From NCBI GenBank assembly GCA_951406725.2, contig OX597836.1, forward strand, positions 31,558,001 through 31,622,000: a stretch of 64,000 nucleotides of DNA. The letters are read 5' to 3'. The notes under the pieces were generated by a model, which was not told the origin of the DNA, searched no databases, and saw only the letters and a program-made list of their open reading frames with translations. Numbering within the stretch: the first letter of the stretch is position 1; every line of letters begins with the position of its first letter. Below are positions 2,606 through 56,646 of the stretch, one piece after another. This DNA comes from Octopus vulgaris (taxonomy: Eukaryota). Position numbers and translations under genes: made by a program.

Positions 2606-2735
2606 CCTGCAATATGAATGATCTCCAAGATCAGTGGGTAGGATGTACGCGACACTGTTTTCCAAATCAGACTTTGTGTGATTGTAGGAGGTAAGTACAA
2701 GGAAAACGTGTGTTGGAACTGTTTCAGGAGAAAAC
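2606..2735 (-). CDS. ENPP module B exon: [16 protein letters not shown]...[15 protein letters not shown] (following exon not found in window)
   Basis: PTH.F.VLTS and ILP motifs; cttcag/gtaagt; phase 2 to 0. Confidence 0.9.
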
Positions 2736-6871: not shown

Positions 6872-7356
6872 CATCATCATCATCACAATTGCAGCATGGA
6901 AAGTGTTTATAAGCCATTTAAGAAACACACAAAAACCGTTAGATTCACTTCAACGAGGATTTGGTTGGCCCAAGGTTATAGTAGAAGATACTTGCCCAAG
7001 GTGCCACGCTGTGGGTCTGAACCCGGAACCATGTGGTTCGTAAGCAAGCTTCTTACCACACAGCCACTCCTACGCCTAGTACATTGGTACATTATGTAGA
7101 AGTATATTTACCATTTTGCTGAATACTGGGGAGTTAGGACAATCGTTATCTTGAAGAAATTGCTTCAACTTCACAAGTGACATATTGAAAGGTGTTTTCA
7201 AATATTGGCCCATCAGACTCTGTTTGTTCCTTATTGGTGGTGAATGTAAAATGCTATCCAAACGGCCCACAGTTCCATTGTTTGGAGCACCGCTAACATT
7301 GAAGATATCTGAAGAAAGAAGTAGAAATTATCTTTATTTTCTCATTCAATTTTTTG

Positions 7357-23887: not shown

Positions 23888-24468
23888 TTGAAAAATACCT
23901 TAGGAATGAGAACCTAGGTTCAAAATTTCTGCAAGACACCTGATGAAGGTTGGAGGGTATATCAGCCGAAACATTGTGTTAACAACAAACAAGGTGAAGA
24001 CAAATATCTGTCAAATGTAAATAATGTAAATAATGTAAATAATGTACATAAACCCCATCTCTTAAATATAGAACTGTATGAGTATTATGACATGATGTCT
24101 TATCCTTCTGGGTGTTAATAAAACAAGGAAAACAAGGGAAACTATGATGTTTGTTTCCTTGTAACATAGATGCAAGAGTGGCTGTATGGTAAGAAATAGG
24201 GGCTTGTAATGCTGCTAAGATGACCCAGGACAATAACACGATTCATAATGAAAACATCAGGATTCTAAGGGATAACATAGGATTCAGAGGGGTAACAGAT
24301 ACATAGGACAAAAATGCAACAAACATACAAAAAAAAAATACTCACGGAGTATATTTCTCATAATTATCTGGGTGATATTCTGAAAGAAAATAAAGGTGAA
24401 AAGTAAGTAGTGTGTGTTTATGTATATATGAGGTGTATGTATGCATATACATATATATGTATGTATGC

Positions 24469-24786: not shown

Positions 24787-26864
24787 CATACATGTATATA
24801 TATATTTCTTTACTACCCACAAGGGGCTAAACACAGAGGAGACAAACAAGGACAGACATAGGTATTAAGTCGATTACATCGACCCCAGTGCATAACTGGT
24901 ACTTTATTTATCGACCCCGAAAGGATGAAAGGCAAAGTCGACCTTGGCAGAATTTGAACTCAGAACGTAGTGGCAGACGAAATACCGCTAAGCATTTCGC
25001 CCGGCGCGCTAACGTTTCTGCCAGCTCGCCGCCTTGTATATATACATGTATATATATGTATGTATGTATGTATACACATGAACACGCACATGCACACACA
25101 CTCACGCATGCACGATGTGGTACTGAAAAGTTCCTGGCTTTGGGTAAAAGAAAATACAGGAGGATCAGTTAATTATGATCCTGTTCAACGTATTCCTCTC
25201 CCAGATTTACACACTTATTGCAGCACAGAAACACACATAAAGAAACACACATGTACACACACACTAGAGGGTGCTGAAAAGTTCATCAGTTAATTATGAT
25301 TTTATTAAACATATTCCTCTCTCAGATTCACACCCTTATTGCAGTGGCCTTCAGTTTTTCTAGGCCCTATAAAAGAACTCAAAAGATGGGGCCTCCAGTC
25401 AGGTCTTTTGTGATACCCTCAAAGCCAGGAACTTTTCAGCGCCTCCTAGTTTGTGTGTATATATCAATCTATTTTCATATATATAAATATATGCATAGAA
25501 GCATGGCTGTGTGGCAAGAAAAGTGTGACACGGCTGGCCCTTTGAAATCAGGTACAACAGAAACAGGAAGAAAGAGTGAGAGAAAGTTGTGGTGAAAGAG
25601 TACAGCAGGGTTCACCACCACCTGCTGCCAGAGATTTGTGGAGCTTTAGATATATAAGGATGAAAAGGAACACATGAGTTGATATATATAAAAATATATA
25701 TTCAGGATAGAAAATGCTAAAATAATTTTATAAAGAACATTTCAGTACCGGTTTCAGTCATTGAGACCTTTTCAAATGTAACAATTAAATAATTAAATTT
25801 AGAAAAATTAAAAGAAAAGTTTTTTTAAAAGAATATTTGTATAGTATTCAAATATAAGTGGCATTTTCCTTGTTTCTGCCTTTCTCTGTCTCTCTTGTTT
25901 ACACTTGTGGGTTCGAGGTCATATATTATATATTTATATTGTTTTTGTGCGTGTATGTATGTATGTATGTATGTATGTATGTATGTATGTATGTATGTAT
26001 GAATGAATGAGGAACTTACTCAGTACAGTACTTCCAGGATAGAGAGCTGCTGTTTTTATTCCATTGTCTGACAATCGTTTCCAAATCTATAGAATAAACA
26101 GAGAAATCATTACTGAAGGATCCCTTCCCAAAGGAACAACAAAAAATAATAGAACAGAATTAAACAAAACAACACAGTCTAAAATTCATCTTGATTTAGA
26201 TTTAAAAAGTCTGATACTTATTCTATTGGCCATTTTTGCTGAGCTGCTTAGTTACAAGGATGTCAACAAACCAGCACCAGTTGTCAAATAATGTGAGTGT
26301 GTATGTTTGTGTACTAGCACAGACTCAAAGACACACATGTATATGAATGTGCACATACATACATATATAATTATATGTGTATGTGTGTGTGTGTGTGTGT
26401 GTGTATGTGTGTGAAACTAATTAGTAGCTTGAGTTTAAATACTGTGTATATGAAATGATATATATATATATATATAAATACAGAGTACATTTAAACACAT
26501 AAGAGGCATCCATCATAGGACACCTTGCATTCTAGAAAGAACAGTCAAATTCCAAACCAGTATTAGGGATAAAACTTTGAAGGGAATGAAAAATAAAAAC
26601 ATTTACCATCTAACTCCTGGACTTATTTTTAGCAAATAAAATAATTTGCTAGGTGAAATCTTCTTCAGCAGGTACACCCTAGATTAAACATATATGTATG
26701 AAGCAATCCAGTATATGTCCCATGTGTTTAAATGTACACTGTTTATTTATATGAATAATATATAGTCTATTGACTAAATTTTTTACATGCTAGGCCACTG
26801 GTAGAAGAAATTTCTAATATTTCTTATTACCCTTGATATTATTAATTATATATATATACATACA

Positions 26865-26924
<60 letters not shown>

Positions 26925-28536
26925 CACACATGCACACATGTATATGTTTTTATGTTCAGTTATAATACACACAATTTTACATTAATCTGATGGGTTACTC
27001 TATACTTTTGTAGAGTACAAATTTATTCTTCTTAAACAAAGATATTATGGAGAGTGACTTTGATGTCCAGTCGACCAGTTGAGCCATCATTGGACTGCAG
27101 TCTGATGGTTATTCAACTGACTAAAACTTTGAAGTCACTCTCAATAATATTCTTGTTTAAAAATAACACACATACACACACACACATGATGAGCTTCCAT
27201 ACAGTTTCTGTCTATCAAATCCACTCGCAAGGCATTGTTTGATCTAGGTTTATAGTAGAGGACACTTGTCTATAGTGACATGCAATGGGACTGAAACTGG
27301 AACCTCGTTGCTACAAGGCAAGCTTCGGAAAACATATAAGCAAAACATATTTTTTGAGTTGTGTCTGGGAAGAGTCATTTTCTTTTTGTGCCTTATAATG
27401 TAACACACTCACTGGTAATATCTGATATGGTCCCAAATAGGGACCATCGATATTAAACTGATTTTTAGAATGAGGCGAAGAGTTAGGGGCTTGCTCCGCC
27501 TTTGCCATGGGTTGGTCTGGTATAGCAATATTTCCAGGATTCAGCCCATTATTAGAGAGATGGTCAAGACTATTGAAAAGGTTGCAAGGCGCAACAAAAA
27601 TTTTAGGAAAATATAAATAAGAAATAAGTGGAAATTTTACCAGTGAGAGTGTGTTACATTATAAGGCACAAAAAGAAAATGACTCTCCCCAGACACAACA
27701 GAATATGCTTCAACACACGAACTCATATAAAGAATCTTGCAAGCCAAATCCAAAAACGAAATTATTTTTTGAGGTTTAACCCTTTTGTTACTGTATTTAT
27801 TTTGAGATGCTCTGTGTTCCTTTCAATTACTTTAAATATAACAAAGAATTTAGTAAAATGACTTAGTTATCATTAAGCTAGTGTTAGGAACATAAATTGT
27901 GACTAAGGTTTGTTGGAAGGTTTTAATTTAGAACTTATGAAAACAAGATATTTGTATTCAGAACCAGAGCTGGTTTCAGCCGGGTTGGTAACAAAAGGGT
28001 TAAAGTGAAAAAAAAATTTTAAAATAAATTTTCTATATTTAACCGAGTTATTTGCAGAATATTTAAATATCTAAGGAAGGTCAAACACCAATTGTTATAA
28101 GATATGGAATAAGAATTCTTCCTTACCGGTTCTGCATTCCACCACTTGCTATCAATATTACCTGTCTTGAAAGAGTCGTTATACTTGATATCAAACATGC
28201 GGTTGGCAATAATTCCATGAGTTTCTGGATAGAGTCCCTGTTAATTAAGAAATGGCAATTAATAAGCTTCTAGAATTATTATGTCTTCTTTTGTTAATAT
28301 TCTTTTATTCTTTTTATTGTTTTATTCATTTCAGCCATGCGGTTGCGGTCATGCTGGAGCACCACCCTCAAGAAATTTTAGTTGAATGCATTGAGCCTAG
28401 TACTTAATCTATTGATCTCTTTTGCTGAGCTGCTAGGTGATGGGGATGTAAACATAACAACACCAATTGTCAAGTGGCAGCGTGGGGATGACAAGCACAG
28501 ACACACACAGGTATGTATACACACACACACATACTG

Positions 28537-28597
<61 letters not shown>

Positions 28598-31514
28598 ATA
28601 TATATATATATATACATATGTATATGTATGTATCTGTGTAGAGATAGATATGTATGTATGGATGTATATATATATATGTTTATACACACACATACATACA
28701 CACACACACACACATATTTATTAACACATGCATACATATTTATATAATGGGCTTCTTTCAGTTTCTGTTTACCAAATCCACTCACAAAGCTTTGTTTAGC
28801 CTGAGGCTATGGTAGAGTACACTTGTCCAAGGTGCCATACAGTGTGACTGAACCCGGAACCATGTGGTTGGAAAGCAAGCTTCTTACCACACAACCACAT
28901 CTGCACTTTAAAAACAGATAATGGCTGTATTTGCATATTCCAAGAGTTCTCTCTCCTTCTTCAGTGCCAAGTACCTGGATGTGTCTTTGTTATCATTCCC
29001 AAGGTTCCTTTTATTTAAGGGTTTGCTTAACCTTTTAGCATTCAAATTACTCTATGAAATGTAATGTTTATTTATTCACATTGTTTGGAAGTAATCATAT
29101 ACAGGGTGTTCAAAAAGTCTCTCCGCAGTGAATTTTATTTTCTCCAAGATGTATTTCAAAACAGGTGTAGAAGAGTCAACTTATGTATTGAAAATGAAGG
29201 ACAACACTTTCAACACCTCTTATAAAGTTTTTAAAATCTTGTAAAGTCTAATATATTCTTTTGTAGTCTTATTCCATCTTATAAATATTTATTTTGCAAT
29301 AAAATACTTACTGCGGAGAGACTTTTTGAACACCCTTTTTTACCTTGTAGCCTTGAAATTTTAATGATGTGACTGTATATTCATTTGTCTAATATTGTAG
29401 GGTAGGTGTGAGAGGCTGGATCTGGCCAGTTTGTGCATAAAATCAGGAAGAATATCTTGCCTGGATAGGGCTGCTTTAAATGCTAAGAGGTTAATGTCTT
29501 CAGTCCTCACATTCTGGTTATCTCTATTTTCAGATCTTTATATTTATATGATTAATTACTCCATTGCCATGTCAAAACCTGAATCTTTGGACTCAGTTGT
29601 GTTCCAGTATTTTTAAAAAATTTATTTTTTGCCTCTGTGATCTTATGTATCATCATCACAAACATCATCACCTTTTTAATGTCCATTTTCTATGCTTGTA
29701 TGGGACAGACAGAATTTATTGAGAGGTGTAGGAGTGGCTGTGTGGTAAGTAGCTTGCTTACCAGCCACATGGTTCTGGGTTCAGTCCCACTGCGTGGCAC
29801 CTTGGGCAAGTGTCTTCTACTATAGCCTCAGGCAGACCAAAGCCTTGTGAGTTGATTTGGTGGATGGAAACTGAAAGAAGCCTGTCGTATATATGTATAT
29901 ATGTATCTCTCTCTCTCTCGCTTGACAACCGATGCTGGTGTGTTCAGCAAAAGAGACTGATACAATAAGTACTAGGCTTACAAACAATAAGTCCTGGTGT
30001 CAATTTGCTCGACTAAAAGGTGGTGCTCCAGCATGGTCACAGTCAAATGACTGAAGCAAGTAAAAGAATAAAAGAGTAGGTTTTCTACAGCTGGATGCTC
30101 TTCCTGTCACCAACCCTCACCTGTTTCCAAGTAAGGTGATATTCCCTATGACCAGAAAATGCTTTTATGGAAGACTGGATATAAATGACACTGCTAACAT
30201 AACAGTGGCACTTGTTTACAGCTATCACATTAAGTCAAGGCGAGGAGACAGTAAAACACACACACATTTTTGGTACCTTACTGTACTGGTGTCTTGCTGT
30301 ACTCAAGAAGACCTGTACTCTGCTGCAGAAGTGTTATGACTGGTCTCTCTGGTGGCGCAAAGTGCCCATGTGGTGTCATGTAAAAGTGCCTGTGTGATTT
30401 CACATAAACGTGCCAGTGCAGCACCACATAAAAGTGCCTTGTGCAGTGCCACACAAAAAAGTACCCTGCACACTCTGCAAAGTGGTTGGCATCAGGAAGG
30501 GCATCCAGCCATAGAAACCAAGCCAAAACAGACCGGAGTCTGGTGCAGCTCCCTAGCTGGCCAGCTCTGGTCAAACCGTCCAACCCATGCCAGCATGGAC
30601 AATAACCATTAAACGATGATGACGACGATGATGATGATACATATATGATAGGCTTCTTTCAATTTCTATCTACCAAATACACTCACAAGGCTTTGATAGG
30701 CCTGAAGCTGAGTGTAATAAAAGTCATTTGCCCAAGGTGCCACATGGTAGGACTGAACCCTGAACCATGTGGTTGGTAAGCAAATTTTCCATCACACAAC
30801 CACACCTTTTCCTATAAGTAATTACATTAATACAAAAAATAGGTCTTGTTTTGTCTCATGAAAAATACTCACAGTGGCCATACTGAAATGATTTGGGAAA
30901 GTTTTTGATGGAAACGCTGGTTTCATGTAAGGGCTATGGACTCCACATTCTCTGAGACGACTGATTACAGGTGTAACATGTCTGTTGAGATAACTCACTC
31001 GGAATCCATCCAATGAGATGAATATTAAAGTTGGACCACTGTAATAAAGAAAATACATTTTAAATATTTTAAAAATCAGCATTTATCTTTTATCTTTTAC
31101 TTCTTCCAGTCATTGGATAACAGCCTTGCTGGGATTACTAGCACTGAAGGGCTGAGTTGAACAAATTGACCCTGAAGGAGGCGAGCTGGCAGAATCATTA
31201 GCACACTGGGTGAAATGCTTAGCGGTATTTCATCTGCCGCTACGTTCTGAGTTCAGATTCTGCTGAAGTCCACTTTGCCTTTCATCCTTTCGGGGTCGAT
31301 TAAATAAGTACCACTTATTCACTGGGGTTGATGTAATCGACTTCATCCCTTTGTGTGTCCTTGTTTGTCTCTTCTATGTTTAGCCCTTTGTGGGCAATAA
31401 AGAATTAAATTGACACTAGTATTATTTCAACAGTCTCTTTTTTTATCAAACTTTTAAGTTACAGGGATGCAAACAAACCAAAACCAGCTGTAAAGTGGTG
31501 ATGGAGTACAAACA

Positions 31515-31560
<46 letters not shown>

Positions 31561-33039
31561 GGGCTTCTTTCAGTTTCTAATTTCTTTATTGCCCACAAGG
31601 GGCTAAAGATATAGGGGACAAACAAGGACAGACAAAGGGATTAAGTCGATTACATCGACCCCAGTGTGTAACTGGTATTTAATTTATTGACCCCGAAAGG
31701 ATGAAAGGCAAAGTCGACCTCGGTGGAATTTGACTCAGAGCGTAATGGCAGACGAAATACCGCTAAGCATTTCACCTGGTATGCTAACATTCCTGCCAGC
31801 TCGCCGCCTCTTTTCAGTTTCTGCCTATCAAATCCATTTACAAGTCTTTGTTTGGCCAAGGAACCATGATAAAAGAAACTTGCCCAAGATGCTATGCGGT
31901 GGATCTGATGTAACAACTGGTGTGTTTACGTCTACGTAACTTAGTGGTTCGGCAACAGAGACCAATAGAATAAGTACTAGGCTTACAAAAAATAAGTCCT
32001 GGGGACGATTTGCTCGACTAAAGGCAGTGCTCCAGCATGGCTACAGTCAAATGACTGAAACAAGTAAAAGTGTAAAAAGAGTAAAAGAGTATATATATAT
32101 ACACACACACAACATGACAACAGATGTTGGTTTATGTCTCCACAACTTAGTGGTTCAGCAGAAGAGACCAACAGAATAAAGTTACAAAAGCACCAAGCTT
32201 TTGAAAAATAAGTACTGGATTCAATTGGTTTGACTAACACCCTTCAAGAAGGTACCCCCAGCATGGTCGCAGCCCAGTGACTGAAACAAGTAAAAAGACA
32301 AAAGACCTGAATGTACCAGTAATTATTGGGTGTGGCCTTCAATGCATTTCTAAATCCAGAACATTGAGAACCATTGGCCGATGCTAGCCACGCCTGGCAC
32401 CAGTGCAGGTGGCACGTAAAAAGCACCCACTACACTCACGGAGTGGTTGGCGTTAGGAAGGGCATCCAGCTGTAGAAACATTGCCAGATAAGACCGGAGC
32501 CTGGTGCAGCCTTCTGGTTTCCCAGATCCCCGGTCGAACCGTCCAACCCATGCTAGCATGGAGAACGGACGTTAAACGATGATGATGATGATGATGATGA
32601 TTGCTCTGGATATTTAGATTTTCTTGGGAAGTTAAGTAACGGTAGATAAAGCAGTAAGATAATCATAGAAGCAGAAGGGGGATGTTGCTAGGAACATCTG
32701 CTAAGTCTTTAGCAAATAACAGTAAACTATTTTTCAAAATTGGAAAATACATTATATGATATATTCTTAGATGTACTATGTCTGAAAAAAAAAAAAAAAA
32801 AAAAAAGGTAAACGAAAGAGATGATCGTGACTGCAATGCTTTTGATCATATATCTGCTTGACAACAGGAAGTTTCGGTTAAGGACAATACGAAGCTAAAC
32901 AATATTGGCTAACAGCATGTTGTCATGATTACTATAACATTAAACAAACTATGAATTCCATTTCTTACAGCTGCTTATAGTCCAGGGTATTTAATAATAA
33001 TGCGTATTTAATAAAAGTAGTAATAGTAGCAATAATAAC

Positions 33040-33105
<66 letters not shown>

Positions 33106-33728
33106 CATCATCACCATCATCATTTAGCATCTGCTTTCCATGCTAGCATAGGTTGGGCGGTTCAACTGGGGTCTGGGAAGCCAGAAGGCTGCACCAGGCC
33201 CAGTCTGATCTGGCAATGTTTCTACAGCTGGATGCCCTTCCTAACACCAAGATGCCCTTCCTAAATAATAATAATAATAATCGTCATCGTTTAATGTCCG
33301 CTTTCCATGCTAGCATGGGTTGGACGATTTGACTTGAGGACTGGCGAACCAGATGGCTGCACCAGGCTCCAATCTGATCTGGCAGAGTTTCTACAGCTGG
33401 ATGCCCTTCCTAATGCCAACCACTCCAAGAGTGTAGTGGGTGCTTTTATGTGCCACTGGCATGAGGGCCAGTCAGGTGGTACTGGTAATGGCCATGCTCA
33501 AGTAGTGTTTTTTATGTGCCACCTGCACAGGAGCCAGTCCAACGGCACTGGCAACAACCTCGCTCGAATGTTTTTCACGTGCCAGTAAGGTGACACTAGT
33601 AATGATCCTGTTTGAATGGTGCTTTTTATGTGCCACTGGTATGGAAGCCAGTCAGCTGTAGCAGCGATCACGCTCGGATGGTGTTCTTAGTGCTCCACTG
33701 GCATGGGTGCCAGTCAATAATAATAATG

Positions 33729-33764
<36 letters not shown>

Positions 33765-33995
33765 GTTACAAATTTTGCTACAAGGGCAGCAATTTTTGGG
33801 GAGGGTGTTAGTCAATTACATCGACCTCAGTGTTCAACTGGTACTTGTTTTATCAACCGCAATATGATGAAAGGTAAAGTCAACCTCAACGGAACTTGAA
33901 ATCAGATTAGAATAACGGGCAAAATTCTGCTAAGCATATTGTCCAGCATGCTAATGATTCTGCCAGCTCACCACCTCAGTGATAATAATAATAAC

Positions 33996-34044
<49 letters not shown>

Positions 34045-34505
34045 GTTTCAAATATTGCTATGAGGGCAGAAATTTTGGGGGAGGGGGCTAGTCGATTACA
34101 TCAACCCCAGTGTTCAATTGGTACATATTTTATCGACCCCGAAAGATGAAAGGCAAAGTCAACCATGGCAGAATTTGAACTCAGAACATAGTGATGGGTG
34201 AAATAGAGCTAAACATTTTGTCCAGTGCACTAATGATTCTGCCAGTTTGTCACCTTAATAATAATAATGTCACCGTGCCGGTGACATGTAAAAAGCACCA
34301 ACCAATCGTGGCTGTTTGCCAGCCTCCTCTGGCCCCTAGAGGAATAAATAAATGGAGTAAATGCAGGTGCTATTCAAATTTTTATACTTCTGACATATAC
34401 TTCTGGAATAATACCAATGTCTTCTTCGAAACATATGTTGGAAGTATAAAGATTTGAATAACACCTGTGTTTAACTCCATTTACATATATAAAATATATT
34501 AAACA

Positions 34506-34550
<45 letters not shown>

Positions 34551-37022
34551 TTAATTAATTAAAAAAAGCAGAGGAAAAGACAAGAAAAAACAATAATGTC
34601 AGGATGTAGTATTAATAAGATGCTTGAAGAAGGAAAAGAGTAGTTGGTTTACTTTCGAGTATAGCTCTTCTTCAGAAACAGGAAAAATAGGAAAGTCCAA
34701 AGGAAAAGGAGGGAGGAAAAAATCGCCAGTAGTCCACGTGTAGTTACATTTTGAAGTGAGCGGAAGTAGGACAAAGAGAAAGTGCTTTCAGGAACAGGAG
34801 AGTGTGAAGATGCTGTGTATGTTTGTGTGTGTGTATGTGTGGTGGCATGTGTGTGTGTGTGTGTGTGTGTGATAATGTGTGTATATATGGTAGTGTCTGT
34901 GTGGAAGTAACTGTGTGTGCTTGGTAACATGTGTGTATGGTAGCGTGTGTGCATGGTAGTGTGTGTGCATGTGGTGGTAACTGTGTGTGTGTGGTATTAA
35001 CTGTTTGTATGTGTTAGTATTTGTGTGAGTAGTCTGTGTGTGTTTTTGTGCTTGTGTGAGTAGGCTGTGTGCGTTAATGTCCCTCTGAGATGTCAGCAGC
35101 TATAGTAACAGGAGTGTGTATGGTAGTGTGCATCTGTGTATGTGTGTTTTTGCATGTGTGTGTGTGTAGATGGAATGATCAATAGTGAGTCAGGGTAGTC
35201 TGAAGGGTGTGTGGAAGGCATGGGTGTGGCTGTATGTATGTGTGTGCGTGTTGGCATGTGTACGTAGATGGAGTGGGAATGTGTGTGTGAACATGTGTAT
35301 GGGTGCATGTGTATGTCTCTCTCTCTCCATATGTGTGTGTGTGTGTGTACGTGTGTGTGGCGATGTGTGTGTGTCTATGTGCATGTGAGTGAGTGTGGAA
35401 GTGTATGTATGTGTGTATATATGAGTACATGTGTGTGTGTTGTGTGTTTGTTGTGTGTGTGGAGGTATATGTGTGTGTGCATGTGTGTGTATGTGTGTGT
35501 GTGTGTGTGCATGGGCTTCTTTCAGTTACCATCTACCGAATCCACTCACAAGGCTTTGGTCAACCCAGGGCTGTAGTAGATGACACCTGCCTAAGGAGCC
35601 GCGCAATAAGACTGAACCCAGAACCAAGTGTTTCGGAAGCAAGCTTCTTACCACACAGCCACGCCTACACCTATAAACATACATACAATAAAAGTTTCAA
35701 CACAACATGGCTATGAATAAATGATGTTCATTGTCAGTTATCAAAACAGTTATGGTTTATGCCTAGTTTATGTTTTCACAGCAAGACTAAAACCTCATTG
35801 CTAATAAACTTCAGAAATAACACGAAAACATCACGTTCTCTTGAGAAAGACACATTTTAAAATTTGGCATAGAAACCTTTTTTTTTTGTTTGTTTTTTTT
35901 TGTACTTGTTTCAGTCATTTGACTGCGGCCATGCTGGAGCACCGCCTTTAGAGTGGTGAAAGAGTACAGCAGGGATCACCACCATCCCCTGCCGGAGCCT
36001 CGTGGAGCTTTTAGGTGTTTTTTTCGCTCAATAAACACACACAACGCTCGGTCTGGGAATCGAAACCGCGATCCTCCGACCGCAAGTCCGCTGCCCTAAC
36101 CACTGGGCCATTGTTTTTTTGTTTTTATGTTTAGCTTCTCTGTAATACAAAACTATGCTAATTTATCTGTACGCTGAGTGTCACATATAAAGCTTTCAAA
36201 GAAAGAAACTGGAGAACTTAGATATTAATTATACATAGCCAATAAACCAATGGCTTTTTAAGGATGTATGACTGTTGAATTTATTAACACAATATTGGCG
36301 ATTCCAGATCACTCAGCTGTAGAAATGAGTCCTGATGTCACTGGTGCCAAGCTGTATTGGCCTTTGCCTTTCTCTTGGATAACATCGGTGGCATAGAGAT
36401 GGGAGGCTGGTATGCAGGGGCAACTGCTGGTCATCCATAAACAAACTTACCTGGACTTGTGCCTCAGAGGGTAACTCTCAAGGTGCAATCCTGTGACTGA
36501 AGGGGGTCTTTACCCATTTTTAAATATCTATATGCCATTTTGCAGAATACTGAAAGCACAAGCTCCACTGGGTTGGACACGTTACAAGGTTCACAGACAC
36601 CAGATGGACCCATGCAGTTGTTGTGTGGTATCCAAGGGATTGAAAAAGGCCACTTGGAAGGCCACCAATATGACGGAAGATGATTTGGTCAAGCAATTTG
36701 AAGAAAGATGGCAAAGAATGGTGCAGTCAAGGCAGAACTGGAAGTGCATTGTAACCAGGGGTGTATAACAACATCTAGTCTGGTCGGTGCTGTGATACTG
36801 TGATATCCATATACCATATTTTCCAGCACACAAACTGAATTATTCAAATAAAAATTTACAGGCATAGGAGTGGTTGTGTGGTAAGTAGCTTGCTAACCAG
36901 CCACATGGTTCTGGGTTAAGTCCCACTGCGTGGCATCTTGGGCAAGTGTCTTCTGCTATAGCCCCGGGCCGACCAATGCCTTGTGAGTGGATTTGGTAGA
37001 CGGAAACTGAAAGAAGCCTGTC

Positions 37023-37063
<41 letters not shown>

Positions 37064-37271
37064 TTAATCCAAACGGGAAAACAGAAAAAACAACAACACG
37101 TGGAACAATTACAGTATTATTATTATTAGGCGCTCAGGAAAATGGAAGAAGGAGGGTATGACGTTTCGAGCGGAGCTCTTCGTCGGAAACATAGGAGAAA
37201 GAAAGATCCCGAGACGGGAGGACAGAGGAAAAAAAAATTGCAGGTAGTCTTCACGAGGTCACATACTAAAA

Positions 37272-37331
<60 letters not shown>

Positions 37332-38269
37332 GTTTGTCCCCCTAGCATTGCTTGACAACCGATGCAGGTGTGTTTATGTCCCCGTAACTTAGTGGTTCGG
37401 CAAAAGAGACCGATAAAATAAGTACTGGGCTTACAAAGAATAAGTGCCGGGGTCGATTTGCTCGACTAAAAGGCGGTGCTCCAGCATGGCCGCAGTCAAA
37501 TGACTGAAACAAGTAAAAGAGTAAAAGAGAGAGAGAGCCCAAAAAAGGTTGGCTTATGTGCCAAAACAACTTTTTGGAGGACCAAAAATTCCATGTGAAA
37601 TGCAACAAAATTTGGGAAGATAGCAACAATGTTTCAATATTTACCACTAAGAAAGGAATGTTCTCAAAAAAATTTAGCAAATGCCAGAACATAAGTGAAC
37701 AAGACAAATGAAAAGATACAAAATATAAATTAATTTCATTTGTCTTGCTTGCTTACGTTCTGGCATTTGCTAAATTTTCTTGAAAACATTCCTTTCTTAG
37801 TGGTAAGACCATAGCGGATCTTCTTCTAGCATAATGGATGTCCACTTACAGGTCATCCCTCTTATATGTATTGCATTAGGAGATGTATGTGTATGTCACA
37901 AAGGAGAGTAAGCTACAATAAGTTGAGTAGTAGTAGTGGTGGTAATGGTGGTGGTGGTCGTCGTCACCGTCATCATTATCGTTATAGTAGTAGTGGTAAG
38001 CATGGCTTAGTGGCGAGGGTATTGCACTTATGATCGCGAGGTCATGGTTTCAGTTCCTAGACTGGCTGGTGCATTGTGTTCTTGAGCAAAACCCTTCATC
38101 TCACTTTGCTCTGCTATCACATTGACCCCTGACATGTGGCACACTGTACACCTGTGCAGAGCAATGTCAATTCGATGGCAGGAGGGAGCCAATGTATGGC
38201 ACATACATTTGATCACTCTAAACAAATCATTTGTGCAGGTCATTCAGCAAATGCTGAACACTCACACAT

Positions 38270-38304
<35 letters not shown>

Positions 38305-39449
38305 ACTGTGATAGTATATGACAAGCAAGGGATGCTAGCATGAGATAGAAATAAGTGTTAAAATAATAATGATAAATATAATCTATTATATAAAATCTGT
38401 TCTGTCTGTCTGTATGTGTGTCTTATCGGATCTTGGGCATCCTCCATCCGATTGCGTTCAAATTTGATATGTAGATAGCGACGGTATCAGGGCATGTATA
38501 AGTCTTGAAAAAATTACAAAAATCGATTCCAGGTGAGAATGCAATCGATAAAGCCATGGGAACATGCATTTGTATGCACTAGTACATCAGCTGTTGCGTT
38601 CGATATTATGCATATGTGAGAAAAATGCATGGTGTCTCAAATTTAGGTTAAATCAGTGTTTCTCAAAGGGGAGGTGTATGGGACGGTCAGACAAGTTGTT
38701 TTTGAGAAAATTTGGTTTAAATGTTTGACAACTCATCACCTTCCATTGGAAGGGGGGGGGGGGGAGTTTTGCTCGTATGATATTATAGGTGCAGGTGAGG
38801 CTGTGTGGTAAGAAGTTTGCTTCCCAATCACTTGGTTCCAAGTTCAGTCCCACTGCGCAGCTCCTTGGGTAAATTTCTTCTACTACGGCCCTGGCGAACT
38901 AAAAGCTTATGAGTGGAATTGGCTGTCAGAAAGTGAAAGAAGCCCATCGTACACTATGTGAGTGTGTGTGTGTGTGTTTGTATTTGTCCTGCCCTTTTCA
39001 CAGTAGTAGTTTGCTTGTGTCACTACCACTTAGTGGTTCAGCAAAAGAGACTAATAGAACAAGCACCAGTGTCTAAGAAGAAGTACTGGAGTCAATTCAT
39101 TCGATGAAAAATATTCAAGGCAGTGCCCCAGTATGGCCACAGTCCAATAACTAAAAGCAAGTAAAAGATGAAAGATAAAAGATAAATTTTATCGACTATA
39201 AATTTGTTAAGACTACATGCAAAATATTTTGATTAACAATGATTTATCAGGCATCTCTATAAATCTTTTTGAAAGAAATTGGCAATGATAAAATATTGCA
39301 CTAAACTCTGTCTTGAAAGAAAATTAGTCAAAAATGAACATAAAAATTTTCTTTATGTCTTTCCATTGTATTTACTTTATGTTCAATAAGGATTATAGAC
39401 ATTAAAAAAAAAAAAAATTCTTTTAAATTTCATTTCTAGTCCTTTTCCG

Positions 39450-39480
<31 letters not shown>

Positions 39481-40179
39481 AGAAAGAGATTTTAATATCT
39501 AAACTGCCTGTTGATGATAATCGAGAACTGTTTCATTTATTTGTAGATTAAAACTACCATTCTCCCTCAACTCACACCTTTTGCTTTACATTTTCAAGAA
39601 TTATGCTTCATTAACTTCCATCAAGTTAGTTTTTTTTTTTATTCAGATCCAAAACTGGCTGTCACTGCCCCCCACCCCACAACCACCACTGTCACCTCCA
39701 TTATTATTTTTATTATCACCATTATCATTCACAGTTAGGATATTCTATACTCCTCAATCATTTATAAATATTTTGCTATTACTATGGCAGTCACATATAG
39801 TATTTTTATGTTGTTCTATTGTTGAGCCCATTTTATCATTATTATTATTATTATGATTATTCAGTAGTTTTATTTTTATAGCATGCTTTCACTTTACTAC
39901 CAAGTGCAGCTCTGTGTGCCTTGGGTATGTGCTGTGATTTGTTGTGATGCTCTGATGGTTACTGTATTGAAAGTGTTTATTATTATTATTATTATTATCA
40001 TCATCATCAGACGTAGAAGTGGCTGTGTGATAAGTAGCTTGCTTACGAACCACATGGTTCTGGGTTCAGTCCTACTGCATGGCACCTTGGACAAGTGTTT
40101 TCTACTATAGCCTCAGGCCGACCAAAGCCTTGTGAGTGGATTTGGTAGATGGAAACTGAAAGAAGCCTGTCGTATTTAT

Positions 40180-40213
<34 letters not shown>

Positions 40214-43209
40214 GTGTGTGCATATGTTTGTGTCTGTGTTTGTCCCCCCAACATCGCTTGACAACCGATGCTGGTGTATTTACATCCCCGTAACTTAGCG
40301 ATTCGGCAAAAAAAGACCGATAGAATAAGAACTAGGCTTATAAAGAATAAGTACTCGAGTAAAGGCGGTGCTCCAGCATGGCCACAGTCAAATGACTGAA
40401 ACAAGGAAAGAGTATTATCATCATTATCATCATCATCATCATTATTTTTTTGTTTTGTTTCAGGTAGTTATTTTAATCAGCTTGAGATCTTGTATTAGAA
40501 TGATGATAAAAGATGTCCATTTAGATATCTTCTATAAGGTGCTAAACTAAGAGAAAAGAAAAAGATGAACTTCATAATTCTTCTATAGCAAATGAAAGTT
40601 GCAATGTATCATTAAAACATGATTGCAAAGCAGATAACTTAGTTAGAAAGCAAACTGCTTTGGCGCTGCTCTACAAATCACCCCTACCCAGATAAGACTG
40701 GTTGATATTTAAATGATAAAGTGTTTTATTATTCAAGGAATGACACCACCTGAACAGCAACACCATACAAGTGACGTAGTTTGTTTCCAATCTTCTGTGA
40801 AAAATCGTGCCTGGCAATTGGGAAATGTTACCCAACTTGGAAACAAGTGTGGGTTCGCAGGGTACGCAACAAGGAGGACATCTGACCATAAAGCAGTCTG
40901 CCTCAAAAATATTCTGTCTGGCCCATGTAAGTATGGAAAAGCAGGTGTTAATTGATGATAAACATATGGTGTGAAACCTGGACACTTTTTGGAAATATAT
41001 AAAATGGTTGCAATACTTCCATTAGACAAAGCTGGAAAGAAGAAGAAGGAGGAGGAGGAGGGGGAGGAAGAGGAGGCGGAGAAGAAGAATAGGGGGATGT
41101 GGCTGCATAAGCAATGAGTACATTGGAGATAAAGTACTTACTTTGACATATTTTTGCATTGACTTGTATCAATTTTTTCACAGAATGGCCGATTCATCCA
41201 AGAGGATGCACGTTTTCCTTCCCAAAGTTTTGACGGCAAAAATGTTCTGAGCCTGACAGAATCAGATTTTGAGAGATTTGTCAAAAATTCAGTACCAGTC
41301 AAAATTTCGACATCTCTTATTCGAGAACGATATTCTTCAATATATTTCCTGGGCCTCTAAAACAGAAATATTTTGGGGGCAAAAAGAGAAATATTTAAAG
41401 GTTTTAATACATAATAAATGAATAAAGGATTTTTAAAATGCTGTATTAATGACCAAAAGAGCACAATCACAAATATCACTGGCCAAAATGGGGTTTCTCC
41501 AAAGAATCACTGGAGTAACGCTCCTCAACAGAGTATGAAGCTTGGAAATCAAGGAATCTCTCTATGCTGAGCCATCACTTCTTCGCATAAAGAGATCACA
41601 GCTCTTGTACATCCACATGTGATTAAAATGTTACAAGAAAGAATTACAGAATGGAATCTTGAAGCTGAGCCAGTTGGCAAGAGACCCAGGAGGCGAGCTG
41701 GCAGAAACATTAGCACGCCGGGTGAAATGCTTAGTGATGTTTTGTCTGTCTTTATGTTCTGAGTTCAAATTCTGCCAAGGTCGACTTTGCTTTTCATCCT
41801 TTCAGGGTTGATAAATTAAGTACCAGTTATGCACTGGGGTCGATGTAATCGATTTAAACTCTTTGTCTGTCCTTGTTTGTCCCCTCTGTATTTAGCCCCT
41901 TGTGGGCAATAAAGAAATAAGAGACCCAGGAGTAAACCAAAAATGAAACAGTTGGATAATATCAATAGCTTCAGTTGGTCATACTTAGAAGCAACTGTGT
42001 AGAGGCTTTTTCAATCATCATCATCATCCAGTGTTTTAAATCTGGGCTTTGTCCCTGTCAACGGGGGTGGCCAGATCTACCTCAATGCCAAAGCAACCGA
42101 GGTAGGCAGGTGCAGCCCACCCCAACCTTTCAGCTGGTTGGTGCCAATTCTTCTTTGCTATCATAAGGCTTTTTTGGAGCTGGATTTTCTATGGGGAGCA
42201 AGCCCTTACTTACCCCCAACCTTAGTTTCTAGACAGGAGTGGTCCCGAGACCAAAGCCTCTACCATGATTTTTAAGAAATATGGTGGAAAACTAGCTCAA
42301 GAAGGCAGGGATGCTACTCCCTAAGCCCCCTTTCGGAGCCCCTTACCTAATATTTAATACAATATTTAGTACAGTACTATGAGTTATTGATGGTGCCTGT
42401 ATGTGATTGCTCAAACTTCAAGTAAAAGCAGTTAAATCTCTTTCATATTACATACCACATCTTCAAAAGGAAAATAAGGTTTGTTAAGTCAAGGTTGATT
42501 TGGGGATAAACAATAATAACTTTATGGTATCACAGTGCAGTAATTGTTGTAAGCTGTTTTTACTTTGTTCATTGTTAGCCCTGTTTGAGCAAACATAGAA
42601 TCAAAGTTGTTCCATTCTTGACCATCTTGTCCTTTTTCAGGTATTGTCTTTGTATGACTCCATAGTATAATGTGTGCAAGCTTATTTTTTAAGACAGTTG
42701 GGTACAATATGAAGGACATTCAGTTGGTATTTCTTGCAGATCAAGAAACTGTATAGAGGCATTCTTAGTGGTTGCTAAAATATAGAAATTTTTTTATCTC
42801 TTAGTCAGGAGGGAAAGGTATACCCATGACCCTTTGCAGTGCCTGTGAGGCTAGTGAGCAGGAGAGAAGGAGGAAGGGATCTCCAAACCAGAGAGGAAGA
42901 GCCTAAATGCTTGCTTATAACAGAGCGGACTCCACTAAAGGTGCCCAAAGAGCCAGTTGGTGGTGTTAAACTGGGCAATGGATTAATTATATTATCCCCA
43001 AATCCAGTGATTATTGCAAATATTTCATAAATTAAATTCTCATGCAAATAACGAGGTGCAGGCATGGTTATGTGGTAAGAAGTTTGCTTCCCAACCACAT
43101 GATTCCAGGTTCGGTCCCACTGTGTGACACCTTGGGCAAGTATTTTCTACTATAGGATTGGGTTGACCAGAGCCTTGTGAGTGGATTTGGTAGAAATGAG
43201 CGCATTGTA

Positions 43210-43253
<44 letters not shown>

Positions 43254-45009
43254 CGCGTTCGTGTGTCTGTCATTGTTCCCCATCACTGCTTGACAACCGG
43301 TGTTGGTGTGTTTATGTCTCTGTAACTTAGCAGTTCAACCAATGAGTCTGATAGAATAAGTACCAGGTTTTAAAAATAATAAAGTCTACTAGGGTTGACT
43401 CATCTAACTAAAGATTTTTCAAGGCAGTGCCCCAGCATGGCCACAGTCTAATGACTAAAATAAGAAAAAGAATAAAAGATAATGGCAGTGATGGGATAAG
43501 ATAATAGTGAGAGATACATATTGTTTTTAACAATTCCAGAATCGAATAAATATGATAGCCTTCAGCACCTACCTTACAATTGGCAGTTTCTTGGGTGTGA
43601 GGAAGAATGACTGACATTATTTCAGTATGGTTTCGGCAGTCTTGGAAGTCGCCATCTGATTGGCATTTGCCCAAAATAAGATAAAAATGGCTTGGAACAG
43701 AAAAAGTAGTTCTGTTTTCTTCCGATCTGAAATTAGAAAATACATATATATTTTATGTTTTTAAATTTTTCTTGAGCCCTATTACTCAAAACTGTTACCT
43801 GGTTTCCATGGCATGTATGCGACTGAGATAATATCATTCCCCTTGAACAGGATGCCATTCTGTTGTAGTGTTCAAAGCCAGCAATTTTTGAGTGGGGGGA
43901 ATAAGTTAACCCTTTTGATTTTGACCCGGCTGAAACCAGCTCTGGCTCTGAGTACAAATGTCTTGTTTTCATAAATTCTGAATTAGAATCTTCCATCAAA
44001 CCTTAGTCACAATTTATGTTCCTAACACTAGCTTAATGATAACTGAGTTATTTTACTAAATCCTTTGTTATATTTAAAATTATTTGAAACACAGAGCATC
44101 TCAAAATAAATACAGTAACGAAAGGGTTAATTACATCGACCCCAGTACTTGACTGGCATTTTATTTTATCGACCCTGAAGGGATGAAAGGCAAAATTGAT
44201 CTTGGTGGGATTTGAACTAAGAACATAAAGACCCAGAAGAAATACTGCATAGCATTTTGTCTGAGGTGTTAATCCCAACCCTAACCCTAACCCTAATCTC
44301 CAACATAAAAATAACAAAGATTTCTTCCAGAAAAAGTTGACTGAGATAAAGTCTAGAAATTTACGACCTGTAGGGACACTGTATTTTGTTATGCAACCAC
44401 AATATGCTACAAAGTATATTAAACGTTTTTATAAGTCAATAGCATGTTCTACTGTGTTAGCAGTGCTATTAAATCATGTATTATGGTCATCTCTTCAGAT
44501 TTTCTTCTATAATGATAGCCAACACCTGATTTTATTAACTTTTGTAACCAAGATCTCATTATTGTTTACATCAGGCATCGTGGATATGAAATGTAATAAA
44601 ATCAGTACTGGCTATAATTTTTACAGAAAATCTGTAGAGGTGATCTGAATAATAAAGTATAAAAACTGTCAATTTTCTATTCTCTTTAATCTCTTTTACT
44701 CTTTTACTTGTTTCAGTCATTTGACTGTGGCTATGCTGGAGCACTACCTTTAGTCGAGCAAATCGACCCCAGGTTCCAATCTGATCTGGCAGAGTTTCTA
44801 CAGCTGGATGCCATTCCTAATGGCAACCACTCTGAGAGTGTAGTGGGTGCTTTTACGTGCCACCAGCATGAGGGCCAGCCAGGTGGTACTGGCAATGGCC
44901 ATGCTCAAAGGGTGTTTTTTTTATGTACCACCTGCACAGGAGCCAGACCAGCAGCACTGGCAATGACCTCGCTTGAATATTTTTTCATGTGCCAATAAGG
45001 TTTGCTGGT

Positions 45010-45067: not shown

Positions 45068-48000
45068 CATATTTTATGTCGCCTTACTGGCACCTGTGCT
45101 GGTGGCATGTGTAAAAAGATTCGAGCGAGGTTGTTGCCAGTACCGCCTGACTGACCCCCCCGTGCCAGTGGCACATAAAAAGCACCCACTACACTCTCGG
45201 AGTGGTTGGCGTTAGGAAGGGCATCCAGCTGTAGAAACTCTGCCAAATCAAGATTGGAGCCTGGTGCTGCCATCTGGTTCGCCAGTCCTCAGTCAAATCG
45301 TCCAACCCATGCTAGCATGGAAAGCGGACGTTAAATGATGATGATGATTAAAGGAAAGTATACTGCATATGGCTAATGAAATAATAACACACTGCAGAGA
45401 AAAGCTGACTCCTTACATTTGTCTCGTGGTTGCAACAGTAGCATCATCAACATCTTCACCAACTGTTATATTCTCGAAAATCGGACCAGCTACAGCATTT
45501 ATTAATGAATATTTTCTCCTATACTCATTAATTAAATTGTGAATTTCTTTCCAAATTCCTTCGAAAGGAGGAAAAAAAAAAGTGAATGATTAAATAAAAA
45601 GCAACAAGATATTTAAAGCAGTCATTTCAATATCAAAAATAATTAAATTATAAAAGTTTTACATTGAATTAGTTATATGTAATAAGGGTGTTGGGGTATT
45701 AGGAAAACTTCTAATGGCCTGTGGCATTATTAAAGTTCCACATATATGACTGTACCACACTGAAGAGATCTAACGAGACTGAAACAAGCCTGGGGCTGTC
45801 ACTGTACCTGCCAAATATCTGATTTACTTATTTAAAAGTTTAGCATTTAAACGTGGATGCGCGTAGCTTAGTGGTTAGGGTGTCAGCATCATGATCGTAA
45901 GATTGTGGTTTCGATTCCTGGATTGGGCGATGCGTTGTTCTTGAGCAAAACACTTAATTTCATGTTGTTCCAGTCCACTCAGCTGGCAAAAATGAGTAAC
46001 ACTGCGATGGACTGGCGTCCCATCCAGCTGGGGAACACATATGCCATTGAAATCAGGAAACCGGGCCCATGAGCCTGGCTAGGCTTTAAAAGGGTGCATT
46101 TATTTATTTAGTGGAGGTGCGTGGCTTAGTGGTTAGGGTGTCAGCACCATGATTGTAAGATTGTGGCTTCGATTCCTGGATCGGGCGATGCGTTGTGTTC
46201 TTGAGCAAAACACTTAGAGCATTTTTCCAATCAGTTACATTCTGAGTTCAAATTCCACCAGTATTCAACAGGTATTTATTTTATTGTCTCCTAAAAGGAT
46301 GAAAGACAAAGTCAACCTCGGTAGAACTTGAACTTGGAATGTAAAACTGGAAAAAACAATTCTGAGCATTTTGTCCAGCAGAATAACAATTCTGTCAGCT
46401 TGTTACAACAATAGAAGCAATAACAGCAGCAGTAGCAGCAGCAGCAACAACAACAGCAGTGGAAGTGCAATGGCCCAGTGGTTAGGGCAGTGAACTCATG
46501 GTCGTAAGAATGAGGTTTCGATTCCCAGACTGGACATTGTGAGTGTTTATTGAGCAAAAACACCTAAGCTCCATGAGGTTCCAGCGGAGGTGGGTGGGTG
46601 GGTGAACCCCACTGTACTCTTTCACCACAACTTTCTGTCACCCTTTCTTCCTACTTCTGCCACAAAGCAGAGGAACCATGGTGTAACCCACTATGGTGTA
46701 GTAAACTTTCAGATCCTAGTCTAGATTGCGAATCCTCTGTACCCCAGGATGGTTCAGCTCTCCACCCGTTAAAAGCCGCTGTTTACAGAATGAGGATAAC
46801 AATGCGCCCGTGCAACCGTCAGTCTATTGCATGTGGTGGGTGGATCTTCAAGTTGCCACACACATTCTTAGTAGCTTAGAGTAGGCTCGAATTAGAGATT
46901 ATTCTTTGTGGCTAATGGCGTGAGTCCTGATTGGAAGAAGAAGAAGAAGAAGAAGAAGAACAACAACAACAACAGCACCAGGAACAACAGCTTCAAATTT
47001 TGGCATAAGGCTAGCAATTTTTAGAGGAAGAAAGTGTTAGTTGATTACAGTGACTGTAAAAGCATTGAAGATATTTCCTCACCATTTTTGAATCCTTCAA
47101 ACATAGGAACAGCAGTCTTCATATAATGTTCATCTACAAAACGACCAAAGGGATATTTAAGTCAATTACAGCATGGAAAACTCCTGATAAAACTCATTTA
47201 AAGACATACACATACTATTACATTAATTTTTAATTCTTTGTTAGTATAACAATCAACTCAACCATTTCATTTTTATTACTATAATCACATATCACTTGTC
47301 ATATGACATATGTACTTTAAAACATGCCTTCTTCACTCTAAATATACTGGGTGTCCCAGAAGTTGCACACCACCCTGGATTTTTAAAAGAATACACTCTT
47401 ACTGATTTCAAAAACACATTATTGAAATTAATTATGACAAATACTCGAATTGAGCACCCTCTACAATAAAATATGCTGAAAAAGTATATAATAAAATAAA
47501 ATGCTTTAATTATTTTTAATGAAAACCAGAACGGTGCACGACTTCTGGGACACCCTGTATATAATTTGTGGTGCAAGTGTAGCAAAGAACCCTTTACTCA
47601 TGTAATGTCATCTAGGAATGCTATCATGTGATAGGACCAAATTGTTGTTTCCACCAAAATGTAGACCAGCTTAGTAACAACCAAGGAAGCTCAACTTGCC
47701 AATCAGTAACTGTTCTTCTGGGCCTCTTCTGCAGTTAAAAAGCAGAGCATACAAGAGCTGGCTTTGGCTTGTGGCCTGGTAACATTCCGAATGTATATTA
47801 GCATTCTCTCCCTTTGAAGCAACACCCCCCCCCACCAGATACATATACATGTTATCATATAAGTGCAGGTGTGGTTGAATGGTAGGTAAGTTGCTTGCTT
47901 TACAAAGCAGCGAACTGGCAGAATTGTTAGCACACCGGGCAAAATGCTTAGCAGTATTTCGTCTACCGTTATGTTCTGAGTTCAAATTCTGCCAAGGTTG

Positions 48001-49355
48001 ACTTTGCCTTTCATGCTTTCAGGGTCGATAAATTAAGTACCAGTTATACACTGGGGTCGATGTAATCGAATTAATCCTTTTGTCTGTTCTTGTTTATCCC
48101 CTCTATGTTTAGCCCCTTGTGGGCAATAAAGAAATAAGAAGCTTGCTTCCAAACCACATGGTTCTGGGTTCAGCCCCACTGCATAGCACACTGGGCAAGT
48201 ATCTTCTATTGTACCCCCATGCCCACCAAACCTTGCGAGTGGATTTGGTAGATGGAAATCGAAAGAAAGCCATTGCATATATCATCATCACCATTATCAT
48301 TATCCTCATAATGGGTTGGACTACTGGCATTTGAATAGAATGTCTCAGGAAAGAATTGTGAACTGGCAGTTGATCATGCTTGGAAATCCAACTAGAATGT
48401 CTAATGACTGTTGCTTCAAATAGAACCCTATGGAGAAGGTGCCTGAGGACTTTACTCCCATAACCCTCCCAGAAATAATGGGCAAAGAAGACGGGTGAAT
48501 TATTGATGGATTTTAGCAGGGTTTATTAATTCTCACTATATCCAGAATCTGGCTGAGTGTCAAGTGTGAAATTTCCAGTAAAGTGAGAATATGATCTGAG
48601 CAAGTTAATGACTATATGTGAGATCAGAAGATGAATGAGTATTGATGATGTTAGAAGTAGAAGTGGGAGTATTACATGTTAGCACAACTGTTAAGTGGAA
48701 GAATGTCCTGTATTCTTATTCTTATTGGAAAGTAGAGGAAGTGGTGAGATTTTAACTGAGGAAATAAGGTCTTACTGACAAGATGATGGAGAATGGCTGA
48801 GTGCATCTAACCTGCCACTCTCAGACACATCCAACCAGAAACAGATGTTATAATTGATGGTAATGATGATGACTGCGGTTGCAGTGAAAATGGTGATGGT
48901 AGGGATAATGATGACGAAGGCATCAAGTGATGATGAAAATGACGGTGGTAGTAGTGATAGTGATGGTGATGATGGTGATGATGATGATGATGATGATGAT
49001 GACGATGACGACAGCAGAGGTGTTAACAATGACAAGGAGGATTACAATGAAAATAATTTTCTGAAATTAAAAATAAAAATTAATCACTCACCATCAACGT
49101 AAGGCAGAAGGTATCCTGTAGAGATATTTGAAGTGTCGCTGTTATATTTGAAGCAATTAGTTGATGAGATGTCTGACTGGGAAACTGGATGAGGTGGCTT
49201 TGTTGTGCTTCTAACCTTTAAAATTTTAATTGTCAAGAAGAAATGAAAATAATATTATTAATAAATAATTATAATTAATGTATAATAATAATAATAATAA
49301 AAAAGAAAGAAAAATAACAATAATAATAATAATATTAACAATTAAAAAGAAAGAA

Positions 49356-54132: not shown

Positions 54133-54508
54133 TATACAGACTTGAGTATATAAAGAAAAAGGGGGGAAAAAGAAACAATGTAAAACATACCTTTTTCATT
54201 GTAGAAGAGACCCACTTTGGCATTTGTAATTCAGAATCAAATGCAAAGACAAAAGATTTGGAAAATTGAAGGCAATTTTTTCCAGAATGTTCTTCTAAAT
54301 ATGGGAGACCAAACGGTAAATGCTCATTGAAAGTATCTGCATAAATCTGTGATTCACTTGAAAGTAACTGTGAAAGAAGGAAACTCAAAGTAATCAAACA
54401 TAAAAAGCAATTCAAATTGAGGTGTGTTTGCTTTGTAAAATGTTTTAGTATGATCTACTTGCCTAAGGATATGTCATGCTGATGATTTCAAATAGGGGCG
54501 AAATGGTG

Positions 54509-56388: not shown

Positions 56389-56646
56389 TTGTTGTAGTGC
56401 AAGATTTTACTGTGATCTCATAATACTCTGGTTTTATGTGTAGCATTATTTCTAGTGTTTCCCTTGGAAATACTTACTTGGGGGCAAACGTTTGTTTTAG
56501 TCACATTGGACCATTGGCACAATGTATAGTTAGCTTGTTTTGGTGTCTCCTGTGGAAATGAAGCATTCTTCAGTAACATGGCATTTAGTGCACCCTCAGT
56601 ACCATTATTTGGAGCTGGTTCAATTTTCAAGAGGTCTGGTAAAAGA

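Follow-up and report, generated by a model that had tools for sequence, protein, structure and literature searches.

The 64,000-nucleotide stretch of Octopus vulgaris DNA analysed here (contig OX597836.1, positions 31,558,001 to 31,622,000; hereafter the window) holds 24 exons, numbers 31 to 54, of a 55-exon gene of about 327 kb on the minus strand. The gene encodes a chain of three modules, each composed of a phosphodiesterase (PDE) and a nuclease-like (NUC) domain. We consider, with a probability of roughly 0.8, that the product is a type II ecto-nucleotide pyrophosphatase in which one active distal head would be carried on two retained pseudoenzyme modules. A first-pass annotation of the window had described two fused modules with potentially two catalytic heads. 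The fusion stands, but the modules are three in number, and the two catalytic heads did not hold up: only module 3 keeps all eight catalytic residues (8/8) and modules 1 and 2 keep three each (3/8). The suspicion that further modules lie off the window was right, as module 1 and the start of module 2 are found beyond it.

Gene model and domain architecture

The gene model was built from 464 kb of flanking DNA, guided by the Octopus sinensis protein XP_029649912.1. It spans 31,882,810 to 31,556,057 on the contig, with exons 1-30 off the window, and comprises 6489 nt in which every intron is GT-AG, internal stops are absent and TAA closes the last codon. The predicted chain has 2163 residues, of which 2124 are the same in the O. 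sinensis protein. Its weakest part is exon 1, represented by an 8-residue match and a donor only. A Pfam profile search of the genome gives three PDE starts on the minus strand at this locus. A listing of open frames from stop to stop was uninformative for this gene, whose exons are short.

Exons 5-21, 22-38 and 39-55 are three copies of one 17-exon unit. The 16 internal intron phases agree in all three modules, for which the rough chance is 3e-14, and exon lengths of 34, 109 and 88 nt are unchanged across them. We regard the duplications as old, because the modules of the octopus chain share only 28-30% identity.

The chain begins with a short cytosolic tail, followed by one predicted transmembrane helix, a Thr-rich stalk and the three PDE-NUC modules. 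There is a single hydropathy peak, starting near residue 34, and the structure model predicts a helix at residues 33-51. The PDE family PF01663 matches the orthologues in Octopus bimaculoides, and the O. vulgaris gene has three PDE regions. Likewise, PF01223, the NUC family, matches three stretches of the 2111-aa O. bimaculoides orthologue, and three NUC regions are found in the O. vulgaris gene. The absence of somatomedin-B domains between modules, noted in the first-pass annotation, is borne out by the lack of a Pfam hit in the orthologue and of any tblastn match at E<1 in the 464 kb; this annotation is also absent in several single-module invertebrate relatives. Each module carries 12-16 sequons. 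Module 3 has an intact EF-hand-like Ca2+ motif in its NUC domain (DYDLDG), module 1 a near-intact one (DQNQDG), and module 2 has lost it. Of 70 modules, octopus module 1 is the only one with an aligned histidine of the nuclease motif, and besides this histidine we saw no sign of an active nuclease in the NUC domains of these modules.

The junction between modules

The fusion of modules 2 and 3 falls within the window and involves the following features, taken from the gene model, with exon 38 read from the sequence and contigs and exon 39 also seen in contigs:

41142..41356, minus strand: exon 38, chimeric junction exon with the NUC2 end (LRTFLP) and the module 3 pre-PDE W..C..C segment, stop-free, phase-2 donor
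31039..41141, minus strand: junction intron, 10,103 nt, GT-AG, phase 2
30873..31038, minus strand: exon 39, first PDE exon of module 3, with the D167 equivalent at 31010 and the equivalent of nucleophile T205 at 30902

Exon 38 is 215 nt long, lies between a ttttag acceptor and a GTAAGT donor, opens with the residues RPRK, and encodes 21 stop-free residues after the final NUC segment. Exon 39 has a ttacag acceptor and continues in phase 2 into the PDE sequence. The same construction is seen one module earlier: exons 21 and 38 are both chimeras of a last NUC exon and a pre-PDE W..C..C segment, and both are stop-free up to their donors. The earlier proposals that a whole-module duplication was fused inside one exon, and that the linker is a recognisable pre-PDE segment, are both supported by exon 38. 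The linker has a pLDDT of about 64-76 in the AlphaFold model of a junction-containing protein.

Evidence for splicing comes from assembled contigs of sequencing runs, in which the junction is read from the loose contig ends at the acceptor exon 39. In four of four probable RNA runs, from four studies, a contig spans 30872-31038 and nothing more, identical in every letter and with a flanking intron depth of 0. In runs X4 and X8 the loose 30 letters past 31038 are the final 30 letters of the 41142 exon, joining the two exons as the first-pass annotation had predicted. Among the loose ends listed, those of the other two runs neither confirm nor contradict the junction end. The opposite loose ends match exon 40 in runs X4, X8 and X14, and the X8 contig would run from exon 22 to past the stop if it is collinear with the model, as its length suggests. 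That these runs are RNA is a guess whose sole support is the spliced contigs; no run holding the junction exon is recorded as RNA. The junction peptide is also present in the RefSeq models XP_052831915.1 and XP_014771948.1 of O. bimaculoides and XP_029649912.1 of O. sinensis, and an O. bimaculoides protein retrieved with the junction exon as query is 99% identical and includes the junction.

It could be argued that these are separate tandem paralogues joined by gene predictors or by rare read-through splicing. The later RefSeq annotation of O. bimaculoides does split the locus, into models of 1005 aa and 1172 aa, and the 1005-aa model ends in an alternative last segment that the O. vulgaris genome also has (31,643,966-31,644,040, in the intron after exon 27). 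This segment could belong to a minor truncated isoform or be an annotation artefact. However, the split falls within PDE2 and not between modules, and the 1172-aa model retains the junction of the 41142/31038 type. The older 2111-aa O. bimaculoides model lacks a segment matching exon 28, which makes assembly gaps the likely cause of the split. Separate genes would also sit badly with stop-free exons 21 and 38, with the junction in contigs, with full-length three-module contigs in a cuttlefish-like cluster and with a junction form that is the same in every mollusc examined. The first-pass annotation had named signal-peptide or transmembrane exons of the second module inside the junction intron as the sign of two genes. 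Ten N-terminal queries in tblastn turned up no trace of a first or transmembrane exon there, the best match having an E of 0.31. We consider separate paralogues very improbable.

Catalytic residues and the state of the modules

We scored eight catalytic positions in human ENPP3 numbering: D167, T205, N226, D325, H329, D372, H373 and H483. Module 3, from 31038 onwards, keeps all of them and thus a complete two-zinc site and Thr nucleophile. In module 1 the eight positions read G, S, N, V, E, D, H and S. Module 2 carries D167H, T205S, N226E, D325N and H483Y and keeps H329, D372 and H373, of which the H329 position adjoins an alignment gap and is uncertain. The scores of modules 1, 2 and 3 are the same in O. 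sinensis (3, 3, 8) and 2, 3 and 8 in O. bimaculoides; a cuttlefish-like protein has 3/8, 5/8 and 8/8. At least three zinc ligands are gone in each of modules 1 and 2, of the kind that is essential in mouse ENPP1, where one study reports that alanine at any zinc ligand except H362 kills the activity on ATP and cGAMP (bioRxiv 10.1101/2021.05.04.442665). Given these lost ligands and the mouse mutants, it is very likely that neither module 1 nor module 2 acts as a nucleotide pyrophosphatase.

Modules 1 and 2 do not look like decaying sequence, since their conservation towards the cuttlefish is close to that of the active module (PDE identities of 44%, 45% and 48% for modules 1, 2 and 3) and the model of module 1 is still ENPP-like. 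Between O. vulgaris and O. bimaculoides the corresponding values are 91%, 93% and 86%. For O. bimaculoides module 1, the AlphaFold model, with a mean pLDDT of only 59, aligns with ENPP1/3 structures along about 715 columns at an E of about 1e-47, and module 3 in the model of a junction-containing protein also matches ENPP structures.

The reading of the first-pass annotation, a multi-headed enzyme in which all fused modules are catalytic, has some merit outside cephalopods, where by sequence it holds for most molluscs: 39 of the 44 modules from non-cephalopod molluscs are complete at 8/8. In the octopus, the Ser of module 2 could stand in for Thr as nucleophile, and alkaline phosphatase has a serine nucleophile. 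But modules 1 and 2 are reduced in all three octopus species, with a comparable loss in the cuttlefish-like protein, and even single-ligand alanine mutants of ENPP1 are inactive according to the same study. For the octopus protein we find this reading improbable.

Proposed function

Under the preferred reading of one active head on two pseudoenzyme modules, the protein would be a type II surface glycoprotein like ENPP1/3, and the membrane-distal module 3 with its full two-zinc site would hydrolyse extracellular nucleotides. By homology to ENPP1/3, its Thr would attack the alpha-phosphate of ATP, NAD or dinucleoside polyphosphates, releasing AMP and pyrophosphate. Since the equivalent of mouse ENPP1 H362 (H329 in ENPP3 numbering) is kept, 2'3'-cGAMP might be a further substrate. 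Selection may have kept modules 1 and 2, likely folded and non-catalytic, for a role as a stalk, raising the active head above the membrane, and as partners in folding or binding. This stalk or chaperone role, which we infer by analogy, has less support than the predicted activity of module 3.

Several observations weigh against this reading. The contigs show adjacency of exons and not one molecule across all 55 exons. In module 2, D372 and H373 together with H167 and S205 could form a one-metal site with a serine nucleophile. We found no R-x-K/R-R furin site in the chain that could release modules. The structure models are modest (pLDDT 59 and 64, pTM 0.59 and 0.53) and the packing of modules in them is unreliable. 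The clade of last modules described below lacks support as one group in a larger module tree.

A different view is that modules 1 and 2 have become metal-poor binding or catalytic modules, which might for example bind nucleotides or cyclic dinucleotides without cutting them, and are not a passive stalk. It draws on a pattern of shared substitutions. Of 70 aligned modules, four have D167G, and H483S is found in those four alone: octopus M1, cuttlefish-like M1, Patella M1 and Mactra M3. Three of the four also have N226D. The four occupy three separate places in the tree, with Mactra M3 in the heterodont last-module clade (support 100), and all seven degenerate full-length modules keep D372 and H373. 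The coleoid, limpet and clam modules likely share D167G and H483S by convergence. The pair has the look of an exit from catalysis taken more than once, and it is the most promising pointer to a new function. On the other side, nucleotide-pocket residues are partly gone in octopus M1 (F206 to S), metal loss alone may favour small residues at those sites, and the independent cases are few and their long-branch placement uncertain. We regard a metal-poor role as possible, with odds well below even. A broader and still more tentative version is that molluscs have an accordion-like ENPP family of 2-4 modules, in which single modules have repeatedly and convergently (D167G, N226D and H483S, with D372-H373 kept) turned into metal-poor nucleotide-binding pseudoenzymes. 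In the cephalopod protein one head might then be catalytic, while the two others sense extracellular nucleotides such as cGAMP or have a regulatory part in the response to them.

Distribution across animals

The first-pass annotation had guessed that tandem forms might exist in other invertebrates. This turned out to be so: chains of 2-4 modules are present in molluscs, annelids and Priapulus. Our first search among long proteins gave 24 hits passing E 1e-20, and of the 997 hits of a profile search we took the best 120. Three-module chains are found in oysters, mussels, scallops, clams, a freshwater mussel, several gastropods and a chiton, and four-module chains in Haliotis, Mya and Littorina. 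Two-module chains belong to Patella, Helobdella, Owenia and two proteins grouping with annelids. Priapulus caudatus (XP_014666537.1) has a partial second module. The checked hits of tick, mantis shrimp, amphioxus, hemichordate and vertebrates have one module only. The multi-module layout is thus general in the molluscs found and not special to the octopus.

The NUC-to-PDE junction is present in 11 of the best 150 cluster representatives; two cluster searches gave only ENPP clusters of single-module length. In the cuttlefish-like cluster of 35 members, 11 of the 15 listed are proteins of 2129-2135 aa on single assembled contigs of 6.7-7.1 kb. Of the non-cephalopod mollusc modules that do not keep 8/8, two are truncated models at 7/8 and three are degenerate, namely Dreissena M2, Mactra M3 and Patella M1. 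A two-module Caenorhabditis model with an atypical junction may be an annotation fusion.

Tandem PDE-NUC-PDE junctions also occur in Priapulus and three further proteins that are outside Lophotrochozoa or unnamed. Among other ENPP models, that of the fish Hemibagrus has a reverse-transcriptase insert in the linker, and ENPPs of the amphioxus Branchiostoma have an extra PF01390 domain ahead of the PDE domain.

Evolutionary history

One clade unites the last modules of cephalopods, bivalves and gastropods (FastTree support 99; SH-aLRT 94 in the quick tree). The FastTree tree omitted 7 of 64 modules, three near-identical ones from O. sinensis and four truncated ones. This grouping points to a multi-module gene in the common ancestor of the three classes. 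The gene would have arisen by tandem duplication of the 17-exon unit, joined in the last exon, before these classes split, with later gains, losses and inactivations of modules in single lineages.

Inner modules tell a more varied story. Within-chain identity reaches 68% between M1 and M2 of Mya and 77% between M2 and M3 of Littorina, and M1 and M2 pair within species in the tree for both chiton and Priapulus. From these pairings we conclude that some duplications were independent or that copies were homogenised; in Priapulus an independent duplication is suggested.

Other exons in the window and other loci

The remaining exons of the gene in and next to the window, all from the gene model and with exon 40 also seen in contigs, are:

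60405..60492, minus strand: exon 31, module 2, end of the degenerate PDE domain
56478..56635, minus strand: exon 32, module 2, PDE end and linker
54191..54367, minus strand: exon 33, module 2, linker and NUC start
49092..49215, minus strand: exon 34, module 2 NUC
47083..47133, minus strand: exon 35, module 2 NUC
45417..45558, minus strand: exon 36, module 2 NUC, place of the lost EF-hand-like Ca2+ motif
43573..43726, minus strand: exon 37, module 2 NUC
28127..28237, minus strand: exon 40, PDE3, N226 equivalent at 28204
26020..26086, minus strand: exon 41, PDE3
24346..24379, minus strand: exon 42, PDE3, 34 nt
22738..22864, minus strand: exon 43, PDE3, zinc ligand equivalents D325 at 22776 and H329 at 22764
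19399..19507, minus strand: exon 44, PDE3, zinc ligand equivalents D372 at 19405 and H373 at 19402
18506..18661, minus strand: exon 45, PDE3
16367..16529, minus strand: exon 46, PDE3
11345..11408, minus strand: exon 47, PDE3, equivalent of zinc ligand H483 at 11377
7879..7966, minus strand: exon 48, PDE3
7112..7308, minus strand: exon 49, PDE3 end and linker
6372..6560, minus strand: exon 50, linker and NUC3 start
5841..5979, minus strand: exon 51, NUC3
5250..5327, minus strand: exon 52, NUC3
4165..4294, minus strand: exon 53, NUC3, intact EF-hand-like DYDLDGRAD with its first D at 4211
2606..2735, minus strand: exon 54, NUC3
contig 31,556,179-31,556,057, minus strand: exon 55 with the TAA stop, just off the window

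Three open frames on the plus strand of the window resemble parts of mobile-element proteins. That at 18959-19204, in a 737-nt intron, looks like the C-terminal part of a mariner transposase, and those at 49450-49704 and 36475-36765 look like protein ends of non-LTR retrotransposons; none has a Pfam hit at E 0.1.

Elsewhere in the genome PF01663 is found at C19:53,010,536-53,020,035, where a 297-aa open frame covers most of the PDE domain, at C17:55,298,677-55,384,713 and at C5:30,414,265-30,414,873. The genome search with PF01223 missed even this gene's own NUC exons and therefore cannot show that the gene is the sole ENPP with a NUC domain.

Comparison with known systems

Extracellular ATP and pyrophosphate, and the immune signal cGAMP, are under the control of ENPP1-3. 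The octopus protein resembles vertebrate ENPP1 and ENPP3, and also ENPP2 (autotaxin), in its PF01663 PDE domain, PF01223 nuclease-like domain and W..C..C segment. With ENPP1/3 it further shares the type II N-terminal anchor and, in module 3, all eight catalytic positions; the best matches among solved structures are ENPP3 (E 1e-122). It differs from vertebrate ENPP1-3 in having three PDE-NUC modules instead of one (about 2160 against about 875 residues), no somatomedin-B hit and two catalytically degenerate modules. The solved ENPP structures that we found are single-module chains.

Snake venom phosphodiesterase is likewise built on an ENPP3-type PDE-NUC unit, whereas the octopus protein has several modules and a predicted membrane anchor, and bivalves and chitons, which are not venomous, have orthologues of it. 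Similarity alone lies behind the automatic name 'venom phosphodiesterase 2-like', and the predicted anchor and the non-venomous orthologues do not point to venom secretion. In Paroctopus, 'venom phosphodiesterase' transcripts, which may come from this or another gene, are reported from posterior salivary and digestive glands in PMC12607849, which calls their function uncertain. Our results help to correct the annotation of multi-module ENPP loci, which tend to be split, to carry the name 'uncharacterized' or to be taken for venom components.

Sucrase-isomaltase, a glycosidase of unrelated fold, offers an architectural parallel with its type II anchor, stalk and two modules. Lactase-phlorizin hydrolase is a further architectural analogue, again with an unrelated fold and glycosidase rather than phosphodiesterase activity, whose profragment may be comparable to modules 1 and 2 (PMC6412902). 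The non-catalytic part of lactase lies on the membrane-distal side and is cut off, whereas the degenerate octopus modules are membrane-proximal.

Multi-module models are already in public databases, mostly named 'uncharacterized'. In searches of the open literature, which covered main texts and few subscription journals, we found no description of multi-module ENPPs, and the available parts of PMC6635378, PMC6368272, PMC6522055 and 10.64898/2025.12.15.694494 hold nothing on architecture. Indirect physiological context comes from the zebra mussel, in which the plasma level of an ENPP with a nuclease-like domain rises 4.6-fold after poly I:C, according to PMC7148315. If that ENPP were the three-module protein, the family would be shed and linked to antiviral signalling.

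The closest relatives in form are the multi-module ENPPs of other molluscs, annelids and Priapulus, which share the anchor, the Thr/Ser-rich stalk, the (PDE-NUC)n chain and the junction form. These have 2-4 modules with mostly intact catalysis residues, whereas the coleoid proteins have two degenerate modules. The mollusc series offers a natural test of whether tandem heads divide substrates, cooperate or merely add reach, and the two long-retained degenerate heads of cephalopods, together with the convergent substitutions in limpet and clam, make a testable case of pseudoenzyme evolution. The octopus protein is of the ENPP1-3 type in its domains and its third module, and it departs from the vertebrate architecture in module number and somatomedin-B.

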